A DNA stretch of 57,017 bases, the filler included, from Squatina squatina (taxonomy: Eukaryota): NCBI GenBank assembly GCA_031763465.1. It is 3 parts of 3 records of this genome, joined end to end, with 100 filler letters (N's around TTAATTAATTAA, not from the genome) between each part and the next. Parts side by side here need not be neighbours in the genome. Positions count along the whole stretch, not along the records: positions 38,758 to 57,017 come from JARFOE010000100.1; 2 more parts are not named here. One strand, written 5' to 3'. Positions within the stretch are counted from its first letter, which is position 1. Every line of letters begins with the position of its first letter. This document shows positions 18,427 through 54,689 of the stretch, in pieces. A model generated the notes under the pieces. The model worked only from the letters and a program-made list of their open reading frames with translations, did not search any database and had not been told where the DNA came from. The position numbers and the translations under genes are program-made.

Positions 18427-18526
18427 NNNNNNNNNNNNNNNNNNNNNNNNNNNNNNNNNNNNNNNNNNNNTTAATTAATTAANNNNNNNNNNNNNNNNNN
18501 NNNNNNNNNNNNNNNNNNNNNNNNNN
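18427..18526. other. Artificial scaffold-concatenation linker
   Basis: 44 N + TTAATTAATTAA (18471-18482, palindromic, stops in all six frames) + 44 N. Confidence 0.95.
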
Positions 18527-29039: not shown

Positions 29040-29689
29040 TACAGTTATCTCATTTCTNNNNNNNNNNNNNNNNNNNNNNNNNNNNNNNNNNNNNNNNNNN
29101 NNNNNNNNNNNNNNNNNNNNNNNNNNNNNNNNNNNNNNNNNNNNNNNNNNNNNNNNNTGCCCTTGCTGTTGCCCATCAGCCAGCCAGCTGCAGCTCAGAG
29201 CAAGATGGTGCAGTCTGACACTGGCGTCTTCTAGGTCCAGAGCTACTCGAGGTCATCTGCAGTGTTCTGATCTGAAGGTTAGCAGCTTTCCACCAGCTAT
29301 GCTGTAGCCTGAGGAAGCACCTTGTAGGTGCACTAGGTTAGGCAAAAACACATGGAAGAGGCACTAAAGGAATGCACAAGGGATGATCAGTTTATTTTTG
29401 TATGCATTGTCATAATTTAATTTATAAACTTGGATTAGAATGTGTATTTCGTGTTGGCCTTTATTTTTGTGTTGTGGGAAAGGGGACAGTGTGATGGTCA
29501 GTGACAGGAAAGGTAAAGAGTGTGGGACTGTTGGTGAATGAGTAGCTGTGGTTGAGGTTACTGGTAAGGTTCATGAATTATTTGATCACATAGAGCATAA
29601 GCAGAAAGGGACTGTCTGTGTTACAGCCTCCCTTTCTCTTCCTGTTCCTCCACCTCATCTCCTCATGCTCCTGCTCCTCAGCTTCTCGC

Positions 29690-30119
29690 CTGATAGGTGG
29701 TGGCAAAGACGGCTCCTTCATAATGGCCAAGTTGTGCAGCATGCAGTATACCACCACACATCTTAAGACCCGCTCAGCTGAGTCCTGCAGGGCTTCTCCA
29801 GAATGGTCCAGGCAGCGGAAGCGTTGCTCGAGGGCGCCAATGGTGTGCTGTATAATATTCCTTGCGGGAGCATGGCTCTCATTGTATGCCTGCTGTGCAT
29901 GGATTCTGGACTGGAGGCATGAACCATATCATGAGCGGATAATCCTTGTTGCCCAGTAGCCACACTTTAATTTACCGTGGTGGCTCAAATAGAGCTGGCA
30001 CAGCGGACTGCCGCAGGATGAAAGAATCCTGACTACTACCAGGATATCTGGTATTAACCTGCATGATGTGTTGCCTGTAGTCGTACATCAGCTGCATATT
30101 GAGGGAGCGGAATCCCTTT
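29690..30119 (-). mobile_element. PIF/Harbinger transposase, DDE core and C-terminus, decayed
   Basis: KGFRSLNMQLM.D....IMQVNTRYPGSSQDSFILRQS...WLLGNKDYPL, then after a frameshift ESHA.ARNIIQHTIGALEQRFRCLDHSGEALQ...VYCMLHNLAIM. The element probably extends left to about 29160. Confidence 0.85.
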
Positions 30120-37020: not shown

Positions 37021-38382
37021 NNNNNNNNNNNNNNNNNNNNNNNNNNNNNNNNNNNNNNNNNNNNNNNNNNNNNNNNNNNNNNNNNNNNNNNNNNNNNNNN
37101 NNNNNNNNNNNNNNNNNNNNATTTGATTGAGAGAAGTAAAAGACAGAGTTTAAAAAAAAAAAAAAAAATTTTTTTACAAAATCTCCAACAGTAATTAAAA
37201 CTTGAAGAAATGAGACTCCACTTCTATCATAAGCCTGGAACAGCTCAAGGACCAGGGTAGGACAGCACCGTGTGTTCTTCTCACCAAAGTTTGCAAGCAC
37301 CGGGCACATCTGCACATACCTTTCAAGATGCAGTTAATGAGCTTGAGGTAGCACTGGGCGAGGAGAAGCAAGTGAAAGTGACAGGATGAGAAAACAATCT
37401 ATGTGCCATCTGATATTCACTAGGAAGTGAGCTGAAATAGTTGGCTATCTTGACTGATGGATCAGTCACTTGTTTCATAGATCTGTGGGCAGACACTGGC
37501 TAATGCTGCAAATGATCCCTCTGGTAGACTGAAAGGAGGCAGTGCGCATTTTTGACCGTGCTGCCGCTATGCTATGGAATGGAAATGGAGCAGATCTGCA
37601 AAGGACTCCATGCTGATTCCGAAACTGTGGAGTCAATTTTCTACAGCCATTACCGAGCAAGTGTGCCAAGGCCTGCTCGTATGGTTGGCAGCATGGGTAT
37701 GGCCAGTCTGGCTGTATCCAGTCCAGCTCTGAAGCCTGCTAAACTGCCTGACGTTTATTCTTTCAACTAATACAATGTAAAGTAAGATACTGTGCTTTCA
37801 AAGCAACTGACAGCAGTAAGGTAGCAGAGTTCCCAATGAGCACTGCACTGTACAGCTAGTTAGCTACTATGGGCACACCTTTTGATGGAATAAACCTTTG
37901 GTACTGTGGGGCACATTGTACATGTCTGTCTTTAGGGAATCTCCTGTTCTACAGAACTTTTGGAAAGTTTTTCAGTACTATCAATTTTGCTGCGATACTG
38001 ATGATGATGCCACTGCTTTTCTCCTTTCGTAAATATTCCCTTTGTTGGCTAATCCAGAAAACCAGGCAAATTACTTTAAATCACGAACTGAAGCATAAAT
38101 CAGCTATTGCACATTTGCTGCAAAATTAGAAAATGTTTAAACATTAGCTGAAAAATATTTAATTGCTTTTTCCCCTTGGCTTTAAATTGGAACCTAAGCC
38201 AGCTTCATATTAACACCAGTTTATAATGGGATGTGCTGTTAGGTGGGACTTCTGCTCAAACAACCAAAATGTGAACAGGCTGACTCAGGATGCTCATTAG
38301 CATACATAATTAGACTCTCAGTGAATTACATGGGCTCAAAATCACTGTAGCTATATCACTGACTCATATCCTTCTGAAACAG

Positions 38383-38581
38383 GTTACATGCCTTGCTTGT
38401 GACAACAAATCCAACACAATTGAATCCTTCTGGGACCTTTCTCTAGAATTTCCTGAGAGATACCACTGCAATGGAAAAGAAGCTGCTTCCCAGCATCCTT
38501 GCTTGTTGACTGAAATGTTGGCAAAATTCACAGAGACGGAGGCCTTGGAAGGGAAAATTTATGCCTGTGACCAGTGCAACA
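38383..38581 (+). CDS. USP44: USP44 second coding exon
   Basis: aaacag|GTT...AAC A|gtgagt encoding [66 protein letters not shown]. Phase matches the previous exon. Confidence 0.92.
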
Positions 38582-38657
38582 GTGAGTAAAGAGGATGTAC
38601 TGTCTATGTACACTGTGGCGATTTAATCAGTAAAGAGCAATGTTGTAGTTTTCCTTT

Positions 38658-38757
38658 NNNNNNNNNNNNNNNNNNNNNNNNNNNNNNNNNNNNNNNNNNN
38701 NTTAATTAATTAANNNNNNNNNNNNNNNNNNNNNNNNNNNNNNNNNNNNNNNNNNNN
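38658..38757. other. Artificial scaffold-concatenation linker
   Basis: 44 N + TTAATTAATTAA (38702-38713) + 44 N. Confidence 0.95.
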
Positions 38758-41985: not shown

Positions 41986-43116
<1,131 letters not shown>

Positions 43117-46100
43117 TTTAAGTTGCTTTGCTTCCAAATAATTACAGTGGAACAAAAGCCTGTTTTCGGTTCTGTGGTTAATCTAGTTCTTATGCACTCT
43201 ATTTTACTGACTAGTTACAATTCATTGTACGAAATAAAGGCATCTTGTTTGTATAAGGTGTATCTTTTGGATCTCTCCATATCGTGAATGTACTGTAAAT
43301 AATTACACACAGGGTTATCAAGCACCAAGTTATTTGTGTCCTTTAGACTTTTGCCCCAGAATCTGTTCATAAGAAATTGATGAAGACTATCTGATCAGTT
43401 TCCAGTACCTTTTTACAGTAAAACCTTATCTCCTTTCCCTTGCAAAGCCCTTGCCCCTTTTTCAAGTCTCTCACCTCTGCCACTGTGAATCTCTTAAATT
43501 GATTAATAGCAGTAGTATAACAGTTATTATATACCTACCTCTGACCCGTTTCATTTCCAACATTTAAGTCCTCTCCTGCACAAAAAAGCCCACATATTGA
43601 TTAATGAAAACAAGGCATTTTTAACTGAAAAGTTAATTTTAAGAACATATTTACAGACAGGTATTTTGTGCTAGTTCCTCATTATCCTGACCCATGTTTT
43701 AGTAACTTTCTATTGTTTTCTTTAGGCCATCCCCTTTCCTATATTTGGTATTTATTGCCAAGAGGGCCTCTGTCTGGTATGTTGTGCCTCAGGGCAGTCC
43801 ACAATTACTTGGTCACAAATTTACTGTTCCCTTGAAGAAACACCTCATCTGTTGAACTTTTTCCCCTCTCCATTCCCTTTCACAGGGTGATCATATATAG
43901 ACTGATCACTCCACTGCTCATCGCGCTGCATCTACATATAATACCAAAAAAGAGAGATTTTAAAATCAGAAGCTTAAAAATACAGCAAGAATTATGAACA
44001 CCTCCAAATTAACAATTATTCTGTAAAGTACAGAACAATAATGATGCATTGAATTAAAACGTCCAAATAGTAAAAAAAACTTGAGGCATTTGATTTCCCC
44101 ACTCCCGCAACTGTTGGACGAAAGGCGGAAACAGGAATATCGGGCANNNNNNNNNNAAACATGCATTCCATAGTATTCAGCCTTTAGTCTGCCAGAATGA
44201 AATAAAACCATTGCAGACTAAGAAATGGCAGCCAACCACTTTCAGCAGGCCCACAAAACAAGAGCAGCTATTGTCATCATACGGCGTGACTAAGAGGAAG
44301 TATGTTGCTCCTTGTGGCATTACATCATCTCCCAAAGCAGCACAAATCTAAATCCTCATTACCAACGAGCTCCAACCTTCAACTGTCTGCAAAAACACAG
44401 CAACGTCAGTAATTGCTTTTTAATGACTGCATTTCACATTCACAATCAAGGCTTTTCAGCAACCGTTACTCAGTGGCGGGTAACAAAACTCCCACTGGGA
44501 TTATGAAATTAAGTAAAACTGCTGCTTTTTCTGCAGTACTGAAAGAGGCGGTGAATTTGGAAAAAAGGAACCATGTGTTTTTTAATACTTCGCAGAACAC
44601 TGGAGAGAAGAAAATTTCTTTGCCCAACACAGCAGAGCAGAGCTTTTTACAGCAGATTAATACAGGTACATTTCACAAAATCAGACAACCTATTGTTCAT
44701 TAAGTTTGTTAAAAGTACAATTATAGTGAACTGGCTAGCTGTGGACACTTCAAGCACCGAACAAACAGGAAATTCAGTTCAGCGCTCTTCATCCCATTTT
44801 AAAAAATAAACCTGATGACTCGGAACTAATTCTCCTATGGCAAAACTGTTACATGAGGACACATGCAAGGTACAGTAGAATTGATTTAAAGGATTAGTAT
44901 TTTCTCGAGACTGATTTTTTGTTTTGTTTACGGAGTACATTTGCCTATTTGCAGTTAACATAAACAATGCGGAATAGTCGACATCGACTTTTCCCACTAA
45001 CTTTCATGAACAGAGGTAAATGTAGCCCAATGCAAGGAAAGTCAATTCTTAGCTAATAATGTTAGGCACAACATGGTTAGATGCAAAGCAGATACCATGC
45101 CTCAAATCTAACCACGGCAAAGGATCTTCTCTATACTAGTGTACAAATTTTCAACTTCTCGCACCAATCATCCTTGTAACCTGAACCTTTCAATTGTTCT
45201 GAACAGCAGGCAGTAGTGTAGACCTGTAACCATTACAAATTGGTTGGAATTGGCACCCTCATCTTACCTGGTAACTTTGCAGATATGGTCTCACCCAGCA
45301 GTGAGAACACTACACCATCCATTTCTTCTTCCTGCTTCCCTCCCCATATACAGTGGTTTTATTACACCTTAATACAATCAATCTCAGGCATTAGGATTTA
45401 GCATACGTATTCAAAATAAACACTCCACTCACCAATATTTTCCTCCTCCCTTAAAAAAAAATAAAAGCTCACAACTTGCCGAAGATACTTATATGACTGA
45501 AAATAGTCCGTCAGAACCTCATCTACCCTGTTTAAACTGTCCAGTTTCTGAAGTAAATAACTGCAAAGAATACATCTTAAATGTTTATTTAGAATCTGCA
45601 GCAGGTTTCTTTTGCATCATCACAAATAACTCAGATATGTTTCTCAGCAGATTGAAAATGTATGCTCGAGTTCCCCTGAGACTGGGGCTGAAATTGGTTA
45701 GGAACTGTGTTTAGGGGCCTAACCAATGGCACACAGGCAGTGAGCGCCCCAACCAGGTGCTCAACTGAACTTTGACCAAAAATTTGAGCTAGTCTATCTA
45801 CCTATCAGGAAAGATTGAACAGGCTGGGGCTCTTTTCGCTAGAAAAGGCAAGAGTGAGGGGGGTGAAATTCCCCGTCCTGACTCGCTCGGTTCGCGCTTC
45901 CGGGAGGTCCTCGCTGGGTGGTCAGTGCTTTGCGGCAGCCAGTGGTGCTCCTGCCAGCNNNNNNNNNNNNNNNNNNNNNNNNNNNNNNNNNNNNNNNNNN
46001 NNNNNNNNNNNNNNNNNNNNNNNNNNNNNNNNNNNNNNNNNNNNNNNNNNNNNNNNNNAGTTACAGCAGGAGATGGGTGGAAAGCACTAGGATTCAGAGC

Positions 46101-47811
46101 CACAACATAAATCAATATTTCCCTGTAAGTGCACACAACCAAGAGGCACAGAGAAATTTGTAAGAACAACCAAGAAATAGGCTGTAGCAATAAAACAAGA
46201 ACCTACAGGTGAAATGGGGAAAAAAGACTACAAACAAAAAGGAAAAGAATAATTATTTACGGTCACAGGTACAGCATAAATAAATATATTCTGAATAGAA
46301 TGCTGACTTAACTTGAATCTGTATCAACAAAGGGATGAGATATGCCGCTTCATCTTCAGGCAGCTGTATTTAAACATGAAAATAGTACAGGACACTGCCT
46401 TTCACAATGTATACAAATTAAATTTATTCCCAAAACTTGATACAATATATAGTTTTACACTAAAGGATACTTTTATAAAATGTTAAACCATGTGTATGTT
46501 TTTAAAATCTCTAATCCCAAAAGCACAACTTTTCAAATTTACGAAGCAGCAGGAAATGATTGTAAAACTTTGCATGCGAGTATTCACGCGGCAACATTTG
46601 CAAAATGGGGGCTGATAGTTGGTCTTGCAGTCCCAGAGGCTGCTGTTCATATATAAATAGATACAGAGAGGCACATAGTTTACAATTAAATCTAAAAGAC
46701 TTAATAACAAGCACTATTTGTGAATCACCATAAAATGTAGAAAGCACAATACTGAGTTTAAATTGTCACTAAATTCTAAACCCAGCCATAGAACCATAAC
46801 TATCATTTGTTCACTTGGGGACAGNNNNNNNNNNNNNNNNNNNNNNNNNNNNNNNNNNNNNNNNNNNNNNNNNNNNNNNNNNNNNNNNNNNNNNNNNNNN
46901 NNNNNNNNNNNNNNNNNNNNNNNNNNNNNNNNNNNNNNNNNNNNNNNNNNNNNNNNNNNNNNNNNNNNNNNNNNNNNNNNNNNNNNNNNNNNNNNNNNNN
47001 NNNNNNNNNNNNNNNNNNNNNNNNNNNNNNNNNNNNNNNNNNNNNNNNNNNNNNNNNNNNNNNNNNNNNNNNNNNNNNNNNNNNNNNNNNNNNNNNNNNN
47101 NNNNNNNNNNNNNNNNNNNNNNNNNNNNNNNNNNNNNNNNNNNNNNNNNNNNNNNNNNNNNNNNNNNNNNNNNNNNNNNNNNNNNNNNNNNNNNNNNNNN
47201 NNNNNNNNNNNNNNNNNNNNNNNNNNNNNNNNNNNNNNNNNNNNNNACAAAAGCAGGAGCCTGCTGTTTTGTGAAACCATTGGGAAGTATTTTATTGTAT
47301 TATATGTTTTGAGAAAAGTGTTTGTTTATTCAGTGTGGTGTCAAGCATGGCTGCATGCTCATACATTTGTTCATTATCAAAGCCAGTTTTGCCATTAAGA
47401 CTCTTGTGTTCAGTGTAGTATTTCTAAGGAGTAGTGAATTACATTCAAAATTGTTTTAATGCACTGTTTAAAACCCAATAAAATTGAACTGAGTTTCGTT
47501 TACATTGTGTTTGACTCAAATGCACATAATGTAGCGCAGAGTTACCTAAAATGCCTTTGGCCTTGACATGCTGTGGAATTAATAGGTATGAAGGCATAAT
47601 GCATTGGTCTGAAATTCCTCTGTCCACTATTTTAGCAGAACCATTTTAAACGGGTTAATCGCTCAAATAATGGAGAGAGGAAATTCAGATGAAAGTGTTG
47701 GGTTTTCAGCCACCATTATCGCGTACTATAATTTCAAAGCCTTTATTTAATAAGAAAGCAAATTTGTTTACTTTAGTAGCCATAGGTAAGACTCTTTAAA
47801 GAATAAACACT

Positions 47812-48476
47812 GGGCGCCCAATTGGACTCTGTCCAAATCGGGTGCTGCATTAGCCTGGATTGCGCCTCGCTAGCAGCAGGGCACATCTTCACGGCCTCTT
47901 AGAAGCCATTTCGAGCCAGCGTAATGTGGCAACGCTAAATCAGTGTTGTCACGGTGCTGACCCGGCCAATGCCGCGTCACATCTGGGTTGTGCCAGTAGT
48001 GTGGCGCGAGCTATGCTGCTGGCACAACCGATGTGGCCCCGCCCCCTGCCTTAAAGGCTTGCGCAGCAGAAGCGGATCGAGGGCCCACGGGGCCAGCAGG
48101 TAAGTTTTTTTTTAAATGTCATCTGCTGGCAAAGATGGGAGTGGTTTGTTGGGCTTGATCGGCCGCCAATCATCGGTCGACAATAACATCAGCCGATGAG
48201 AAAAGATGGCAGCCAACGGCGCCTTTAAGGGCCTTTGGCACCGCCAGAGGAAACCTATCGGTGTCAGCGCCGGGGGTAGGCCGTATTCAGTTACAGAAGC
48301 GGTGCCCCCGTGGCGCACAGGAGAGTTAAGAGTGGGTGGCGAGGGGTCGGCACGCGTTGTGATGCATTTACGCCGCCAACGCGCTGGGCCCAATTCCACA
48401 ATTTCAATTATTTGGCCTGGATTGCGCCGCTAATTGGCACATTGTGGGCATGAGGTCAGACCAGTTGGGCACCCCC
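47812..48476. mobile_element. GC-rich non-autonomous DNA element, possibly Harbinger-type
   Basis: Imperfect terminal inverted repeats gggcgcccaattgg / ccagttgggcaccc. The right end (cctggattgcgccgctaa...gggcatgaggtcaga) recurs at about 38928-38975. Confidence 0.45.
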
Positions 48477-49289
48477 TAACTTAAAATAGGCAATTTTTTA
48501 ATAGTTTGCAGAGTCTTCAACCTTAGAGGTGTCACTACAGGGAAACGCCAAATGAGAGCCAGGCACCTATCACTGCTGGGCAGGGATGGTAGTGTCNNNN
48601 NNNNNNNNNNNNNNNNNNNNNNNNNNNNNNNNNNNNNNNNNNNNNNNNNNNNNNNNNNNNNNNNNNNNNNNNNNNNNNNNNNNNNNNNNNNNNNNNTCTG
48701 GACACAGGTAGAAGATGAATATCAAAATTTACTACCAATATCAAATTAGACGGGATGGTAAACGGAAAGGAAAAATGCAGCAGGGTATCAACAACTTAGT
48801 GGAATGAGCAGCTAAGTGGCAGATGCAGTTCAATGTAGTGAAACATGCAGTACTTCTTGAAAACAAAACAGCAAAAGAATACTTAAAATGTAAGATCGTT
48901 AAGGGAGTAGAGTGAGAGAGAGAGAGAAGGGATGTGGCAGGGAAATGAAATTAGGTGGATAGTTCTTTCAGCCAGCTGGAGCAAATGCGAAAGGAGAAAG
49001 GCTACTTTCTGTGCTGTGAAACTCAATGAGTATGAATATTCACAGAATCTACCTGCAAAGTCACCTTGGACAATCTTTTCCACATGTCCACCACTCTCTG
49101 CCAAAAGTAGTTAAATCTAAACTGTCCGTGTACCTTCCCTCTCCTGTGCTTGAGCCCATGTTTGCGGCAATCTCAAAAATATTCAGGGTTCAATTCATCT
49201 AATCCCTTAAGAATCTTGAATACTTGAACAAATCTCCTCAGCGTTTTCTGTTCTCCAGAATGAATAATCCCAGGCTCTTCAAAAGGAAA

Positions 49290-49900
49290 CGGAGGGGGTG
49301 ACAAAAATTTTGATCCAAAAAGTTGTTATTAAGGAGAGTCTTAAGGAAGGAAAGAGGGGTTGAGAAGCAGTCGAGTTCAGGAAAGGAATTCTGGAGCATG
49401 GCGCATAGATGGCTGCATGGAAGGCCAATGTTGGTGAAAAGGGAGCAATTCACAAGGGATTTAAACACAAGTGTGAAGGTTAAATTTGAGGTTTTGGGGT
49501 TTGGGAACCAATGTAAGTCAATAAGGACAGGGATGATGGGTGAGCAGGACTTGGTATGGGTGTAAGATAGGATACAGGGAGCGGACTTTAGGATAAACTG
49601 AAATTTACAGAGGTGGAAGATCGAAGACAAGCCAGGAGAGAATTGAAATAGTTGAGCCTGGATGGGACAATGGTATTGATGAGGATTTCAGCAGTAGATG
49701 GGCTGAAATAGGGCAAGTGAGGAGGACGTGGGCAGTCTTGGTGATAGAGAGGATATGGGGTTGAAAGCTCAGCTCAGAGTCAAATAAGATGCCAAGATTG
49801 TGAACTGCCTGGTTCGGCCTCAGGAAGTGGCCAGGGAGAGAGATGGAGTGTGTGGTTAGGGAAGGGAGTTTGTGGCAGAGACCGAAGACAATGGCAGCTG
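49290..49900 (-). mobile_element. L2 LINE ORF2 C-terminal fragment, decayed
   Basis: LRPNQAVHNLGILFDSELSFQPHILSITKTA...SPIIPVLIDLHW...FKSL. Confidence 0.8.
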
Positions 49901-50291
49901 GCTTCTCTTTTGTGCTATTGGTCAATTTCACTGGATCATTCCCTGCTCAATCTAGCACAACAGTTTCACAAAATACAGATAATTACTCAAAAACCAATCC
50001 AGTGCAGACAGACTATACAGGATATTTTGCTCATTGATTGGCAGGTTTTAGAGTCACCAATGAGAAACAATAGTTCACATTTCCTATCTCAATGTGGTAT
50101 CATTTTGCTTAACTCAGAATCTATGTTTTTTTGCTGGTACTCGAAATGAGTAGTAGCATTACATAGTTATGCAATACTTTGGATACTAATTATATAAATG
50201 TGGTATTTATGAATGTTAACCAATCTGATCAAAATCTATTTATGTGTGATGTTGGCTAATTCTGTAACTTATCTTCCCTCAACTGCCAAAG

Positions 50292-50441
50292 GACATAGAA
50301 TAGTGTCTGAAATCAAATGTGATGGAGGTTCTACTGTTTTTAGCCCTAATATTCAAGGATGCAACAGTGCTAACATCACCATGTCTACGAATTGCAACTC
50401 AGCACCTAGTGACTCGACAGCCAGGGCTAAAGTGCCTTTGG
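50292..50441 (+). CDS. Putative penultimate exon of an uncharacterised CARD gene (beta-prone/RHIM-like linker)
   Basis: Pyrimidine tract + ccaaag|GA CAT...TTG G|gtaact. 150 bp, phase 1/1, open, encoding HRIVSEIKCDGGSTVFSPNIQGCNSANITMSTNCNSAPSDSTARAKVPL. It splices in frame to the CARD exon across a gap. Confidence 0.55.
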
Positions 50442-51320
50442 GTAACTATTTATGATTTTGAAATTCAAATGTAACAAGATATGCACCAGCAATAAATTAT
50501 TCAGCTTTCGTAGATGATTAGATCAAGCGTTTAAGATGGTAACATNNNNNNNNNNNNNNNNNNNNNNNNNNNNNNNNNNNNNNNNNNNNNNNNNNNNNNN
50601 NNNNNNNNNNNNNNNNNNNNNNNNNNNNNNNNNNNNNNNNNNNNNCCAGAAGTTGGCCTCGCCCACAAAATTAACCACATCTCCAGATCGAATTAATCAC
50701 CATGGTGACTTTCCATTAATTGCGCTCGCTTGTGGCCCTTCATGGAGGTTCTTAAAACTAGCTTTTTTTTAAGCACTCGCACACTAATGAGCATGTTTTA
50801 AAAGCTTTTGAATACAATTGTTTTTTTAATTTACGAGGAAACTGACTACTGCACCCCGATATAACTAGAAAATAGTTTTATATATTTATTAAAAGTGATT
50901 TTCAATAATTTAAAATCATGTTACTCAGAGGTGGCAGATTGACACTGTGATCATAAATACTTGTTTTTTGTGATAAAATCCTTTAAGCTGTTTTAGTCAA
51001 ACTTCATCAAGTCACTACGGTTAAATATAAGGAAAAGTTTTTAAAACAAAATTAAAAAAACAAAATTACATTTTAAAACGGGGCCTGTTTACGCTGGTTC
51101 AGGGCAGAGTTTGCGTTCGGCAATAAGAAATGAGTTTGAGCGGAAATGTGAGGGAAAAAACATTTTTCAAAATGGACGCAACTTTGAGCACAATTTGCAC
51201 CGGAGTCACTGATTGTGCCCAAAGCAGAAACTCTACCTCAAAATTCTGTCTCTGAAAGTCTTGCATTTAAGTATGACATTAATTCCTACATTCTTTTGTC
51301 TGCATTTTCTGAAACAACAG

Positions 51321-51574
51321 ACAAGAAATCCTTTGTGCAAAAAAACTGGGGAAATCTGGTTCAGAAAATAAAAAGTGTTGATGAACTTGCGGATCAAATG
51401 ATGGGATACGGCCTCACTAATGAAATGTATTCCGAAATCATGACCTGCAAAACCTCTGAAGAGAAGATGAGAAAACTTCTACAGTATATGACGGTGACTG
51501 AAAACACTTGTCATCATCTCTTTTCAAAATTGTGTGAGTTGCACTATTGTATCATGGAAGAGCTCATTCAATAA
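51321..51574 (+). CDS. Terminal exon encoding an ASC/NLRP1/CARD8-type CARD domain
   Basis: caacag|AC AAG...CAA TAA encoding DKKSFVQKNWGNLVQKIKSVDELADQMMGYGLTNEMYSEIMTCKTSEEKMRKLLQYM...LFSKLCELHYCIMEELIQ*. The pattern FV......L...I..V..L.D......LT.E.Y..I....T...KMRKL...L...L.E....LVE.L matches ASC-class CARDs. AATAAA overlaps the stop codon. Confidence 0.8.
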
Positions 51575-51825
51575 AGCCAACACCTCTCCGCCAAAAACTG
51601 CTATTTGTCTCAGGTCATTCTGATAAATTTAAGAAAAACTTGCATTTATATAACACCTTTCTCCACCTCAGGGCATCCCAAAGCATTTACANNNNNNNNN
51701 NNNNNNNNNNNNNNNNNNNNNNNNNNNNNNNNNNNNNNNNNNNNNNNNNNNNNNNNNNNNNNNNNNNNNNNNNNNNNNNNNNNNNNNNNNNGGCTGCTGA
51801 ATTTCCCACATTGCAACAGTGATTC

Positions 51826-51874: not shown

Positions 51875-52763
51875 CCTAGTATCATGAAACCTAGCAACTT
51901 CAAACTGTTGCCTCATCAGTTGCCATGCAAGAGGACAATGCAAATTCAAGCATGTGACTGCTTTTTTAGCTGAATACTGAAAGTTGCAGTCATAAAATGC
52001 TGGAGCAAGAAGCCAGTTGCAGAACTGCTGGCGTAATGGATAATGGCATTGCCCAGTTCAGGACTGAGCTATACCAACCAGGAATGTTTAAATCCTGGTC
52101 CAAGCTAAGTTAGATGACGTGGTCAGGTGGAGGATGAAAATCAGTCAGCGTTCCTACTCTCTTGATAGTTAGCCAGTGGGATAGCTTCTGAAAAGTGCTG
52201 ACATCAAGCATAAAGCTCAGTGCTGATGCTTCCTATGATGAAACATGTGTCAGTCCTTCAGTAGAGAAGAGGAAAAAACTGAAATGATCAGAAATTGAAA
52301 CCGTGTGCTGTTTTGTGAACAGTGCAAATCTAGTGGTCAAGAACATATTTCATCCCTTTTGTGATGTCAATTTTTATTAAACTTTATGGTTTTCAAGCAA
52401 CTTTTACAAAAATAATGGCTATGTGAATTTACCCATGTAAAATTAGTTAGTAATCAAACCCTGAAAGATTTGTATGGCCTCCACTGAAAAGTGTTAGTCC
52501 TGTCTCTGATGCTTTTTAATCAAATACTTTAGTAGCATTTCCACTTTATATTGTGAGTTTGCTCTTTTTCTAGTTTGATCGAGTGAGGGTGATCTACAAA
52601 TATGCACTTGACAGAATTGCCAAACAGCAGGCTCAACAGCTCTTTAAAAACTACACTGTCTTCTAAATGGTTTGGGCTGGGTTATTTTACAAGTTTATTT
52701 TCTTTTTCATTCTGCTCTTCTGTTCAAAACTTAATCTAATATTACAACAAACAGAAGTCTGAC

Positions 52764-52983
52764 CTGCAATATGTTACAGGTTGTTTCTTTTTCAATAGCA
52801 CTTCCTGACAAATCGGACAGACATCCTCCGGGTCAATTTCCTTCTGGCGTACGACTCCGACCATTTCTTCAACATTCTGCTTCACCTGAGATTTGCTGGC
52901 GTGTGGCTGTGGAATCTGCTCTGTATGAAGACTGTCCAGCAAAATTTCAATTTCTCGGTCCACAAGACCAAGTTGGAAGGAGT
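52764..52983 (-). CDS. ZSWIM2: ZSWIM2 (MEX) internal exon, start of RING finger
   Basis: ctttcag|AC TCC...TGC AG|gtcaga encoding SFQLGLVDREIEILL...VRQKEIDPEDVCPICQEVLLKKKQPVTYCR. Confidence 0.88.
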
Positions 52984-53901
52984 CTGAAAGGAGTGGAGCC
53001 CCAGAAATTACACGCTCACTCCAGTACTTATGGAACAATCTTAAATCAACAATTAATTCAACATTCTTTTCCTATATCATGTTCCACGCAACATAACATC
53101 CATACAAGGTTTTTACATTATCTAATCATCACTTTATGTTTGGAATAATGCGTAGTTCCGCACAGTTNNNNNNNNNNNNNNNNNNNNNNNNNNNNNNNNN
53201 NNNNNNNNNNNNNNNNNNNNNNNNNNNNNNNNNNNNNNNNNNNNNNNNNNNNNNNNNNNNNNNNNNNGGGAAAAGGGCAGGTAGCTGTGATTTTTGGCCC
53301 ACTGCTGCCCTGCTTCCCCCCAAAAATGGGAATAAAAATCAGCTCCATACACCGTGCTGCAGGTAACAATAGAACTGTGAGAGTTCAAACCTATGAATAA
53401 ACATCAAACTTCTATCCTACTGGGCTTGCAATAATGATACACATTTTTTGCTGTATGCTTATGTAAAATCTATGCTCTTATCAACTGCTACCAATAGACA
53501 AATATGTTAAGTTCCAGAGGTCCACACCTAGTAAATACAAAGCCACCCTGAATTCATTCCATGCTCTGGCTATCTCTGTGAAAAAGATGAATAACAGTTT
53601 GGAGAATGGAAATGGAATGAAGTAGCCAGTCGGGCTGTTGTTCCAGTACCTTTACATCCCAAATATTCTTGGCAAAGGCAAGGAATAATACTGCAACCCT
53701 GAGAAAGATCTTTATGTGAAGAGTGGACAGTGCAAATTTCTGCTCGAGTTTTGTATTTTTCAGTATAAATTATGAAAACACCAAATGATTCTGAAAATTA
53801 GAAAGCTGAGAAATGTTGAGAACTTTCTTTAGTAAATATTAAATAATGGAACCAGTTCCAAATAAAAGCAGGAGAACTCTTGTTAATTTTTGTATACTTA
53901 C

Positions 53902-54051
53902 TTTAAAATATTTAGTTACACCCTCTTCTTTAAGAAGAAATCCAACTGGACCTAATTCTCTCAAAATATATATAGTTGTACTGAGTGCCTGATCTTGATG
54001 CCAGCTAACTAAATCAGTTACCGTTATTCTCAACGGAGCTGCTCGTGACAT
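53902..54051 (-). CDS. ZSWIM2: ZSWIM2 first coding exon
   Basis: ATG at 54051, MSRAAPLRITVTDLVSWHQDQALSTTIYILRELGPVGFLLKEEGVTKYFK|gtaagt. An upstream acceptor ttcttcag at about 54086 implies a 5' UTR intron. It is convergent with FAM171B, as in human. Confidence 0.9.
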
Positions 54052-54689
54052 GTTGAGAAAGTAAGGCTGAGGTAACCTCCAGTACCTGAAGAAAATTAAA
54101 CAATGTTCAGTGAAATTATACAATTCATTCCCACGTCTGTCAATTTTTTTTCTTAACTTACAGCAAAGGTTCATCAGAGTGGTTTATTTAAACGTTATTA
54201 ATCAAGTTGTAATGTGTTAACCTTGGGTGGTGTTACAAGTTTACGACTTTCCATAGATACCTTCTGGGGTTCAGTGGCGTCAGTCACTCCCATAAGTGGT
54301 CTGTGTGTCGTACTTCTATGGGAGTTGACTCACACTGTCCTTCATCTATTTGAACAATTGCGTAACCTTGGGGTGTAACAGTAGTACCCTTGTGACCTGA
54401 ATTGCTTGTGGCTTTTGCATATGTTCTCACGTGTCTCTCCAATCTTTCCAACAGTGGACCGAGAAAAGATTGGGAAAAACATGGCCTGATATGAATCGAT
54501 AAGCTGCTTTATTTCGCAATAAGGTGAACATACAGAATAGCAGTTACGATCAGGCTCATTTAATTCAATTAGTACAAATTATTATTATGTAATAGTACAA
54601 AATAAAGAATAAGCCACACTTCTCAAATCAGTGACTTAAACAAGATAACTTCTAACTTTCCAAAGCATTTAACCCTCTTACTCTACAAA

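Follow-up and report, generated by a model that had tools for sequence, protein, structure and literature searches.

A conserved beta-rich motif joined to an ASC/NLRP1-class CARD in sharks, a candidate non-RHIM amyloid signalling module

The window analysed here, a 57,017-nucleotide stretch of Squatina squatina DNA (GCA_031763465.1), contains parts of a gene whose predicted product joins a conserved motif to a CARD of the ASC/NLRP1 class. Sequence comparison identifies the locus as a real gene, the ortholog of a 156-aa shark protein consisting of this motif, a linker and a CARD without a PYD, and places it in the uncharacterised fish family si:dkey-10c21.1. Gene and family are already in databases and the gene itself is not new. 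Our preferred reading, to which we assign a probability of roughly 60%, is that the motif stacks in a HET-s-like manner and clusters the CARDs, likely triggering recruitment of a caspase. Feature coordinates are collected in Table 1.

Table 1. Positions of the CARD gene features and of scaffold neighbours in the window
Feature	Position	Strand	Basis
Exon A (motif and Ser/Pro linker)	50284..50441 (5' edge ~50284 or 50292)	+	66-73% identity to shark orthologs from 50285; donor GT 50442
Beta-rich motif of ~33 aa, single copy, candidate amyloid signalling motif	50294..50392	+	34.8 bits, family motif HMM
100-N assembly gap; probably hides ~48-nt middle exon	50546..50645	.	16-aa segment of orthologs; sequence search
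Final coding exon with the stop codon; encodes the ASC/NLRP1-class CARD	51321..51574	+	Pfam CARD E 3.4e-09
AATAAA over TAA stop, possible polyA signal	51570..51575	+	Sequence
FAM171-family last exon, scaffold neighbour on a separate piece	41989..43113	+	Pfam FAM171A1-2-B_C 4.7e-50
Exon with start of RING-like domain, scaffold neighbour on a separate piece	52745..53071	-	Translation; weak RING match E 0.75

A sequence-only reading of this locus had reported two exons with canonical splice sites in matching phase and an AATAAA overlapping the TAA stop, and all of these can be read directly in the sequence: an open reading stretch at 50292-50441 is followed by a donor GT at 50442-50443, and an acceptor AG at 51319-51320 precedes the CARD exon in a phase matching that of exon A. 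The exons had also been taken as directly joined, and this part was not borne out. Exon A lies on the piece 48697-50545 and the CARD exon on the piece 50646-51691, with a gap between them, and all short orthologs have approximately 16 extra residues between the parts corresponding to exon A and to the CARD, so that a direct join is not the expected main form. In the sequenced window, the best score for this 16-residue segment among 99,247 scored positions was 15.9, compared with 39-47 for true segments; as the segment is present in the orthologs and was not found in the sequenced window, an exon of approximately 48 nt probably lies within the gap. Isoforms of an elephant shark paralog occur with and without the matching segment (P0018 and P0024, respectively), and a direct join is thus possible as a minor form. 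The two exons align, one after the other, to a common set of 156-aa shark proteins (exon A with 66-73% identity over 47-52 aa and the CARD with 76-87%), indicating one gene rather than a chance arrangement.

The upstream edge of exon A is less simply drawn. Ala-Lys directly upstream of the acceptor proposed at 50292 is conserved among orthologs, and the true edge may therefore lie at approximately 50283-50285. At the edge implied by the orthologs (50270-50292 region) the window has AC and no AG, which could mean that the acceptor has been lost, that the intron is of the minor class or that the base was misread. An in-frame AG at 50290-50291 would be usable with a preceding exon that ends in phase 1. 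A search of 43000-50290 gave no fitting candidate for a first exon or a minor-class donor. The upstream PYD or FIIND exons that had been envisaged are not expected, as only 4 residues precede the exon A part in the orthologs. The absence of an AG at the ortholog-implied edge, together with the location of the exons on separate pieces of a patchwork window, would fit a functional family whose copy in the window is decaying or mis-assembled, having lost the exon A acceptor or been put together from pieces of different copies. We regard this as highly improbable, since the reading frame is open on both pieces, each of which is closer to one and the same short ortholog than to the long paralog described below, the in-frame AG offers an alternative acceptor and the motif core is unchanged relative to orthologs.

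When the CARD exon was used as a query against longer proteins, 15 of 37 candidates matched, all from sharks and rays, and a further search with the best of these matches returned 18 of 31, adding skate and elephant shark. The CARD exon was 87% identical to Heptranchias XP_067842917.1. Two forms were distinguished among these proteins: a short form of 155-156 aa, comprising 4 residues, the exon A peptide, approximately 16 residues and the CARD, and a long form of approximately 250 aa with an additional N-terminal CARD. Accessions of the short and long forms are consecutive in Heptranchias and Chiloscyllium punctatum, suggesting that the two genes lie in tandem. Both window exons match the short form better, the window protein lacks the N-terminal CARD found in the neighbouring long paralog, and the window CARD falls within the shark short-form clade with support of 99/97 in a tree of 47 rows and 91 columns in which many deeper forks are open. 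Four short shark orthologs carry the RefSeq name 'ASC', and several long forms are named si:dkey-10c21.1. Assignment of the window gene to the latter family rests on the motif followed by the family C-terminal CARD, and on a chondrichthyan clade supported at 100/97; the family is known from a zebrafish gene and the elephant shark cDNA JX052809, and the shark long paralogs that bear its name share motif and C-terminal CARD, the window gene being the short duplicate in sharks that lacks the N-terminal CARD. The gene had been put forward as uncharacterised; it is already annotated in RefSeq, as ASC, for several sharks. In the accessible text of Tan 2012 (PMC3466250), si:dkey-10c21.1 is listed among the ancient CARD genes that tetrapods have lost; it was found in intestine, its function is given as unknown, and the motif is not mentioned.

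The CARD itself had been called correctly, with a Pfam match above the cut-off (E 3.4e-09), and its proposed class was upheld, the best PDB matches of the ortholog being ASC CARDs followed by NLRP1. The short ortholog CARD matched the human ASC CARD at E 2e-07, with an rmsd of 1.7-1.8 A over approximately 80 residues. An AlphaFold2 model of a single-copy ortholog folded the CARD confidently, with pLDDT below 50 for residues 1-60. Pfam scans of four full-length short orthologs found the CARD only and no PYD, and no FIIND was present in the 156-aa and 252-aa shark proteins scanned. The window protein thus resembles ASC/PYCARD in the class of its C-terminal CARD and in its layout as a small two-module adaptor, and differs from it in that the PYD is absent and the N-terminal module is a beta-rich motif predicted to be disordered. 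The RefSeq name 'ASC' for the shark orthologs follows the CARD only.

Other family members carry CARDs of a different class. CARD-caspase prodomains and the CARD of a herring NLR form one group with the N-terminal CARD of the long paralog (support 98/100), and the C-terminal CARD of percomorph proteins is likewise of the CARD-caspase class; the motif is thus shuffled among CARD types. The grouping of the long-paralog N-terminal CARD with caspase prodomains suggests fish CARD-Casp8 as a class of partner. The window protein itself lacks both a caspase-type CARD and a protease domain. According to the part of the source available (PMC2779465), CARD-Casp8 is specific to fish and promotes apoptosis. 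In bowfin, a two-copy adaptor (P0035) and a CARD-caspase-8 (P0082) both have a longest contig of 30,710,096, which suggests location on the same chromosome.

The motif is characterised by alternating hydrophobic strands, a Gly-Gly-Ser turn and conserved Pro and Ile residues. It is conserved, with none of its 12 core residues differing in any of the 5 ungapped orthologs. Sharks have a single copy, whereas bony fish and coelacanth usually have two, and the motifs of the short and long shark forms share approximately 28-37% identity. The Pro in mid-motif is near-invariant; a Pro in the middle of an amyloid core is unusual. A profile built from 23 chondrichthyan proteins matched 555 representatives at E <=0.001, of which 150 were listed, and motif carriers from sturgeon, bichir, bowfin, coelacanth and teleosts were present among 20 of the matches listed. 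The family therefore extends beyond the chondrichthyans, for which it had been proposed. A motif-only profile, scored against 7,998 candidates, gave 50 matches; 45 have a named fish source and 5 no named source, and a CARD is present in 43 of the 50. This search covers proteins sharing exact words, and distant partners may escape it. The motif scored at least 12 bits in 106 of 222 fetched proteins, with two copies in 44. Near motif-only or short forms recur in teleosts (P0122, P0190, P0192, P0220), and the isoforms P0190, P0192 and P0220, from tuna and sea bass, have two motif copies and no CARD and are possible natural inhibitors or seeds. One sequence (P0044) is labelled both tilapia and ferret, the mammalian attribution being, it seems, an error in the database. 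A motif-like score of 9 bits in a frog PYD-CARD-FIIND protein was rejected, as it sits at the start of the FIIND.

The motif had been likened to RHIM or cRHIM sequences, and this likeness did not hold at the level of sequence. The RHIM core tetrad is [IV]Q[IVLC]G, which was found in none of 109 motif copies, the window having I-Q-G-C. Pfam searches with 10 and 19 proteins and with 25 motif rows gave no RHIM, HET-s or related match (HMMER filters drop weak ones), and comparison of the motif profile with the PDB at E 10 matched no RHIM or HET-s chain. On these grounds the motif is classed as distinct from RHIM. Like the RHIMs and cRHIMs of RIPK1, RIPK3, ZBP1, TRIF, Imd and PGRP-LC, it is short, prone to form beta strands and set in disordered sequence next to death-fold domains of animal immune proteins; differences are the missing tetrad, a longer unit and other invariant residues (Ser after the Gly turn and Pro/Asp-x-Ile). 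The available part of Kajava 2014 (PMC4262963) reports that RHIMs also occur in tandem and mentions unnamed fish proteins with RHIM matches.

Signatures of HET-s-related motifs, as set out in the accessible portion of Daskalov 2015 (PMC4518210), include opposite charges at equivalent positions of the repeats and few charges in single copies. Each copy of the fish motif was aligned independently to the motif HMM, and opposite and same charges were counted at shift 0. Across all 48 two-copy proteins, copies 1 and 2 had 109 opposite and 6 same charges at equivalent positions. The corresponding counts were 58 and 2 in 27 representatives (1 of 20,000 permutations) and 36 and 2 in 20 representatives (0 of 20,000), and complementarity was much weaker at shifts other than 0. 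In 12 hand-picked proteins, one per lineage and chosen after the alignment had been viewed, there were 15 opposite and no same charges (2 of 20,000; 0 of 20,000 on shuffling of partners), with an average of -0.01 for mismatched copy pairs. Omission of the percomorph from this set left 12 opposite against 0 same, and the 7 basal-lineage proteins alone gave 6 against 0 (82 of 20,000). The polarity of the charges is swapped between lineages at two motif columns, and at one motif column some lineages have Pro/Pro where others have Arg/Asp. A control with ordinary tandem duplicates, the tandem CARDs of 32 proteins, gave the reverse pattern, with 91 opposite and 455 same charges. The source of the charge signal is the bony-fish and coelacanth homologs rather than the shark protein, and percomorphs contribute much of the raw count.

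Charged residues made up 3.7% of single-copy motifs (17 proteins), compared with 21% of first and 14.5% of second copies; the single-copy value was obtained after setting aside 11 of the 28 rows first classed as 'single', which were either fragments or pairs whose second copy had escaped detection, all 28 giving 9.0%. Spacers between copies were 15-40 aa long and contained 26% Gly plus Pro (26 of 27 representatives measured), and a variable Gly/Pro-rich loop between repeats is also a feature of HRAM and BASS pairs, according to the portion available of 10.1101/2020.01.06.895854. Fish motif pairs thus share with HET-s-type motifs the variable Gly/Pro-rich loop, charge complementarity, low charge in single copies and, tentatively and in a single herring protein, a copy on an NLR. 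The pseudo-repeat with a Gly/Pro loop is found in homologs (44 of 106 with two copies), while the window protein has a single copy. Differences from HET-s-type systems were also evident: the unit is approximately 33 aa compared with 21 in HRAM and the prion-forming domain of HET-s, with no PDB or Pfam sequence match; it is joined to CARDs rather than to a HeLo or Bell pore-forming domain and is often central; and no adjacent NLR was seen for the fish motif.

An AlphaFold2 model of the two-copy coelacanth protein, generated with 50 sequences, gave block-mean pLDDT values of 82-92 for both copies and the same six short strands in each, 61 residues apart. The model was seen as pLDDT values and strand assignments rather than coordinates, and from these we infer the stacking geometry. 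Fold searches with the two-copy model were dominated by the CARD and barely probed the repeats, with only death-fold domains among the matches listed. A four-copy complex prediction for the window motif, in which the alignment was not used, scored 0.01 and is evidence neither way. Generic beta-arch predictors are unspecific, as stated in the accessible part of 10.1101/2021.01.22.426858. The earlier proposal of an amyloid motif coupled to a CARD gains real support from the charge signatures and the repeated-strand model in homologs, though not its RHIM membership.

The same observations bear on a reading in which the motif is a closed beta-roll, a dimer or oligomer module, or a binder of a globular partner by strand addition, and forms no open-ended amyloid. 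The in-register charge pairs and the AlphaFold2 model are evidence of no more than a fit between two copies, extension might be restricted by the central Pro and by the Cys residues, and the nearest ESM Atlas model, from feature searches whose two queries gave no usable match, is a globular beta-helix, SufBD, at a TM score (0.43) below the usual same-fold level. However, one or two rungs would leave both faces open, the lone motif is predicted to be disordered, and single-copy forms avoid charge as expected under repeated self-stacking; with these in the balance, we judge a closed module to be distinctly unlikely.

In the preferred HET-s-like reading, the contrast between a lone shark motif predicted to be disordered and two copies predicted to adopt a repeated-strand fold would mean that the single-copy shark protein completes its fold only by stacking on other molecules, and such a protein would polymerise once seeded. 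The motifs would stack in register as a HET-s-like beta-solenoid polymer, probably seeded by the tandem paralog (CARD-motif-CARD) or by a motif-bearing NLR, and the polymer would display ASC-class CARDs able to nucleate filaments of caspase-1 or ASC CARDs, the motif taking the job performed by the PYD in true ASC. Nucleation of filaments by ASC/NLRP1-class CARDs is established. Points against an amyloid adaptor are the central Pro, the divergence between the motifs of the short and long shark forms, and the lack of a motif-bearing shark sensor among the proteins searched. The divergent short and long motifs may not cross-seed, judging from their sequences.

Evidence for the motif on a sensor comes from one herring protein, an NLR, with the order CARD, motif, FISNA and NACHT. 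Its motif scored 18.3 bits with a broad HMM built without the herring protein, a score reached by 0 of 2,000 linker shuffles, and 8.3 bits, inside the tail of the null distribution, with a narrower HMM. The motif-only search of 7,998 scored candidates found no NLR, kinase or caspase, and none of 14 fetched caspases had the motif. A wider proposal, held tentatively and at slightly less than even odds, is that jawed fish possess an unrecognised non-RHIM amyloid module, lost in tetrapods, in the form of a HET-s-like beta-solenoid motif that has been shuffled between adaptors with CARDs, reached one NLR or more, and couples sensors to outputs of the caspase-1 and CARD-caspase-8 types. On this view, the shark RefSeq 'ASC' would be an adaptor with an amyloid motif in place of the PYD.

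The polymer might instead be opposed rather than propagated by the short shark protein. As a partial duplicate of the long paralog minus its N-terminal CARD, it would in this case act as a decoy or brake, capping or diluting the polymer or sequestering caspase-1 or ASC CARDs in the manner of CARD-only proteins. The CARD missing relative to the neighbouring paralog, the consecutive accessions in two sharks and the recurrent short and motif-only teleost forms (P0122, P0190, P0192, P0220) are in keeping with such a role, but the motif core has diverged from that of the paralog and is yet invariant among orthologs, which fits a specificity of its own, and the CARD is intact and under strong conservation (81-87% identity of the window CARD to 5 orthologs). 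We therefore consider a decoy unlikely and retain the adaptor as the preferred role.

No description of the motif or of its amyloid-type signatures was found in the open literature searched, some of the searches being too broad to exclude one. If the adaptor reading is true, vertebrates would have a further type of signalling amyloid beside RHIM, and a mechanism would be provided for a family listed since 2012 as ancient, fish-specific and without a known function. Since the motif has a zebrafish family member, the question of a vertebrate signalling amyloid is directly testable. A motif-CARD gene is also relevant to the activation of caspase-1 in cartilaginous fishes. A 2026 preprint (10.64898/2026.07.03.736391), in the portion available, reports no ASC in elephant shark and an 'ASC' in Chiloscyllium plagiosum; elephant shark has the long paralog. 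The RefSeq label on these shark proteins may mislead comparative studies.

The window is composed of approximately 49 short pieces, mostly separated by 100-N gaps, and the order and distances of pieces joined across such gaps are those of the scaffolder. The gaps at 18427-18526 and 38658-38757 each have at their centre a 12-base spacer that carries stops in all frames and is flanked by 44 N on either side, suggesting artificial joins, and they divide the window into three blocks of unrelated gene content. The CARD gene had been placed between FAM171B and ZSWIM2; Pfam confirms the FAM171B assignment, the ZSWIM2 label is tentative and the order is that of scaffolded separate pieces. The minus-strand exon at 52745..53071, which is putatively ZSWIM2-like, gave no match in the Pfam search (the weak RING match is in Table 1). 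Two early ZSWIM2-like exons (52745-54183, minus strand) are oriented towards the CARD gene, and no later, downstream exons were seen in the window, so that the CARD gene may lie antisense inside a ZSWIM2 intron. A repeat search over 48697-51691 returned short AT-rich pairs only. Elsewhere in the window, the stretch 1370-2185 is presumably CDR2L-like, and a plus-strand exon at 38314-38586, without a match in the Pfam search, is assumed to encode a USP44/49-type ubiquitin-specific protease. Separate pieces carry a BTB/KCTD-type exon (4688-4951, minus strand; Pfam 1.3e-07) and a C2-type exon (7220-7468, plus strand; Pfam 0.0014). The piece 9695-10084, which has no Pfam match, resembles a fragment of a DDE_Tnp_4 (Harbinger-type) transposase at 29581-29928 on the minus strand (Pfam 1e-08).
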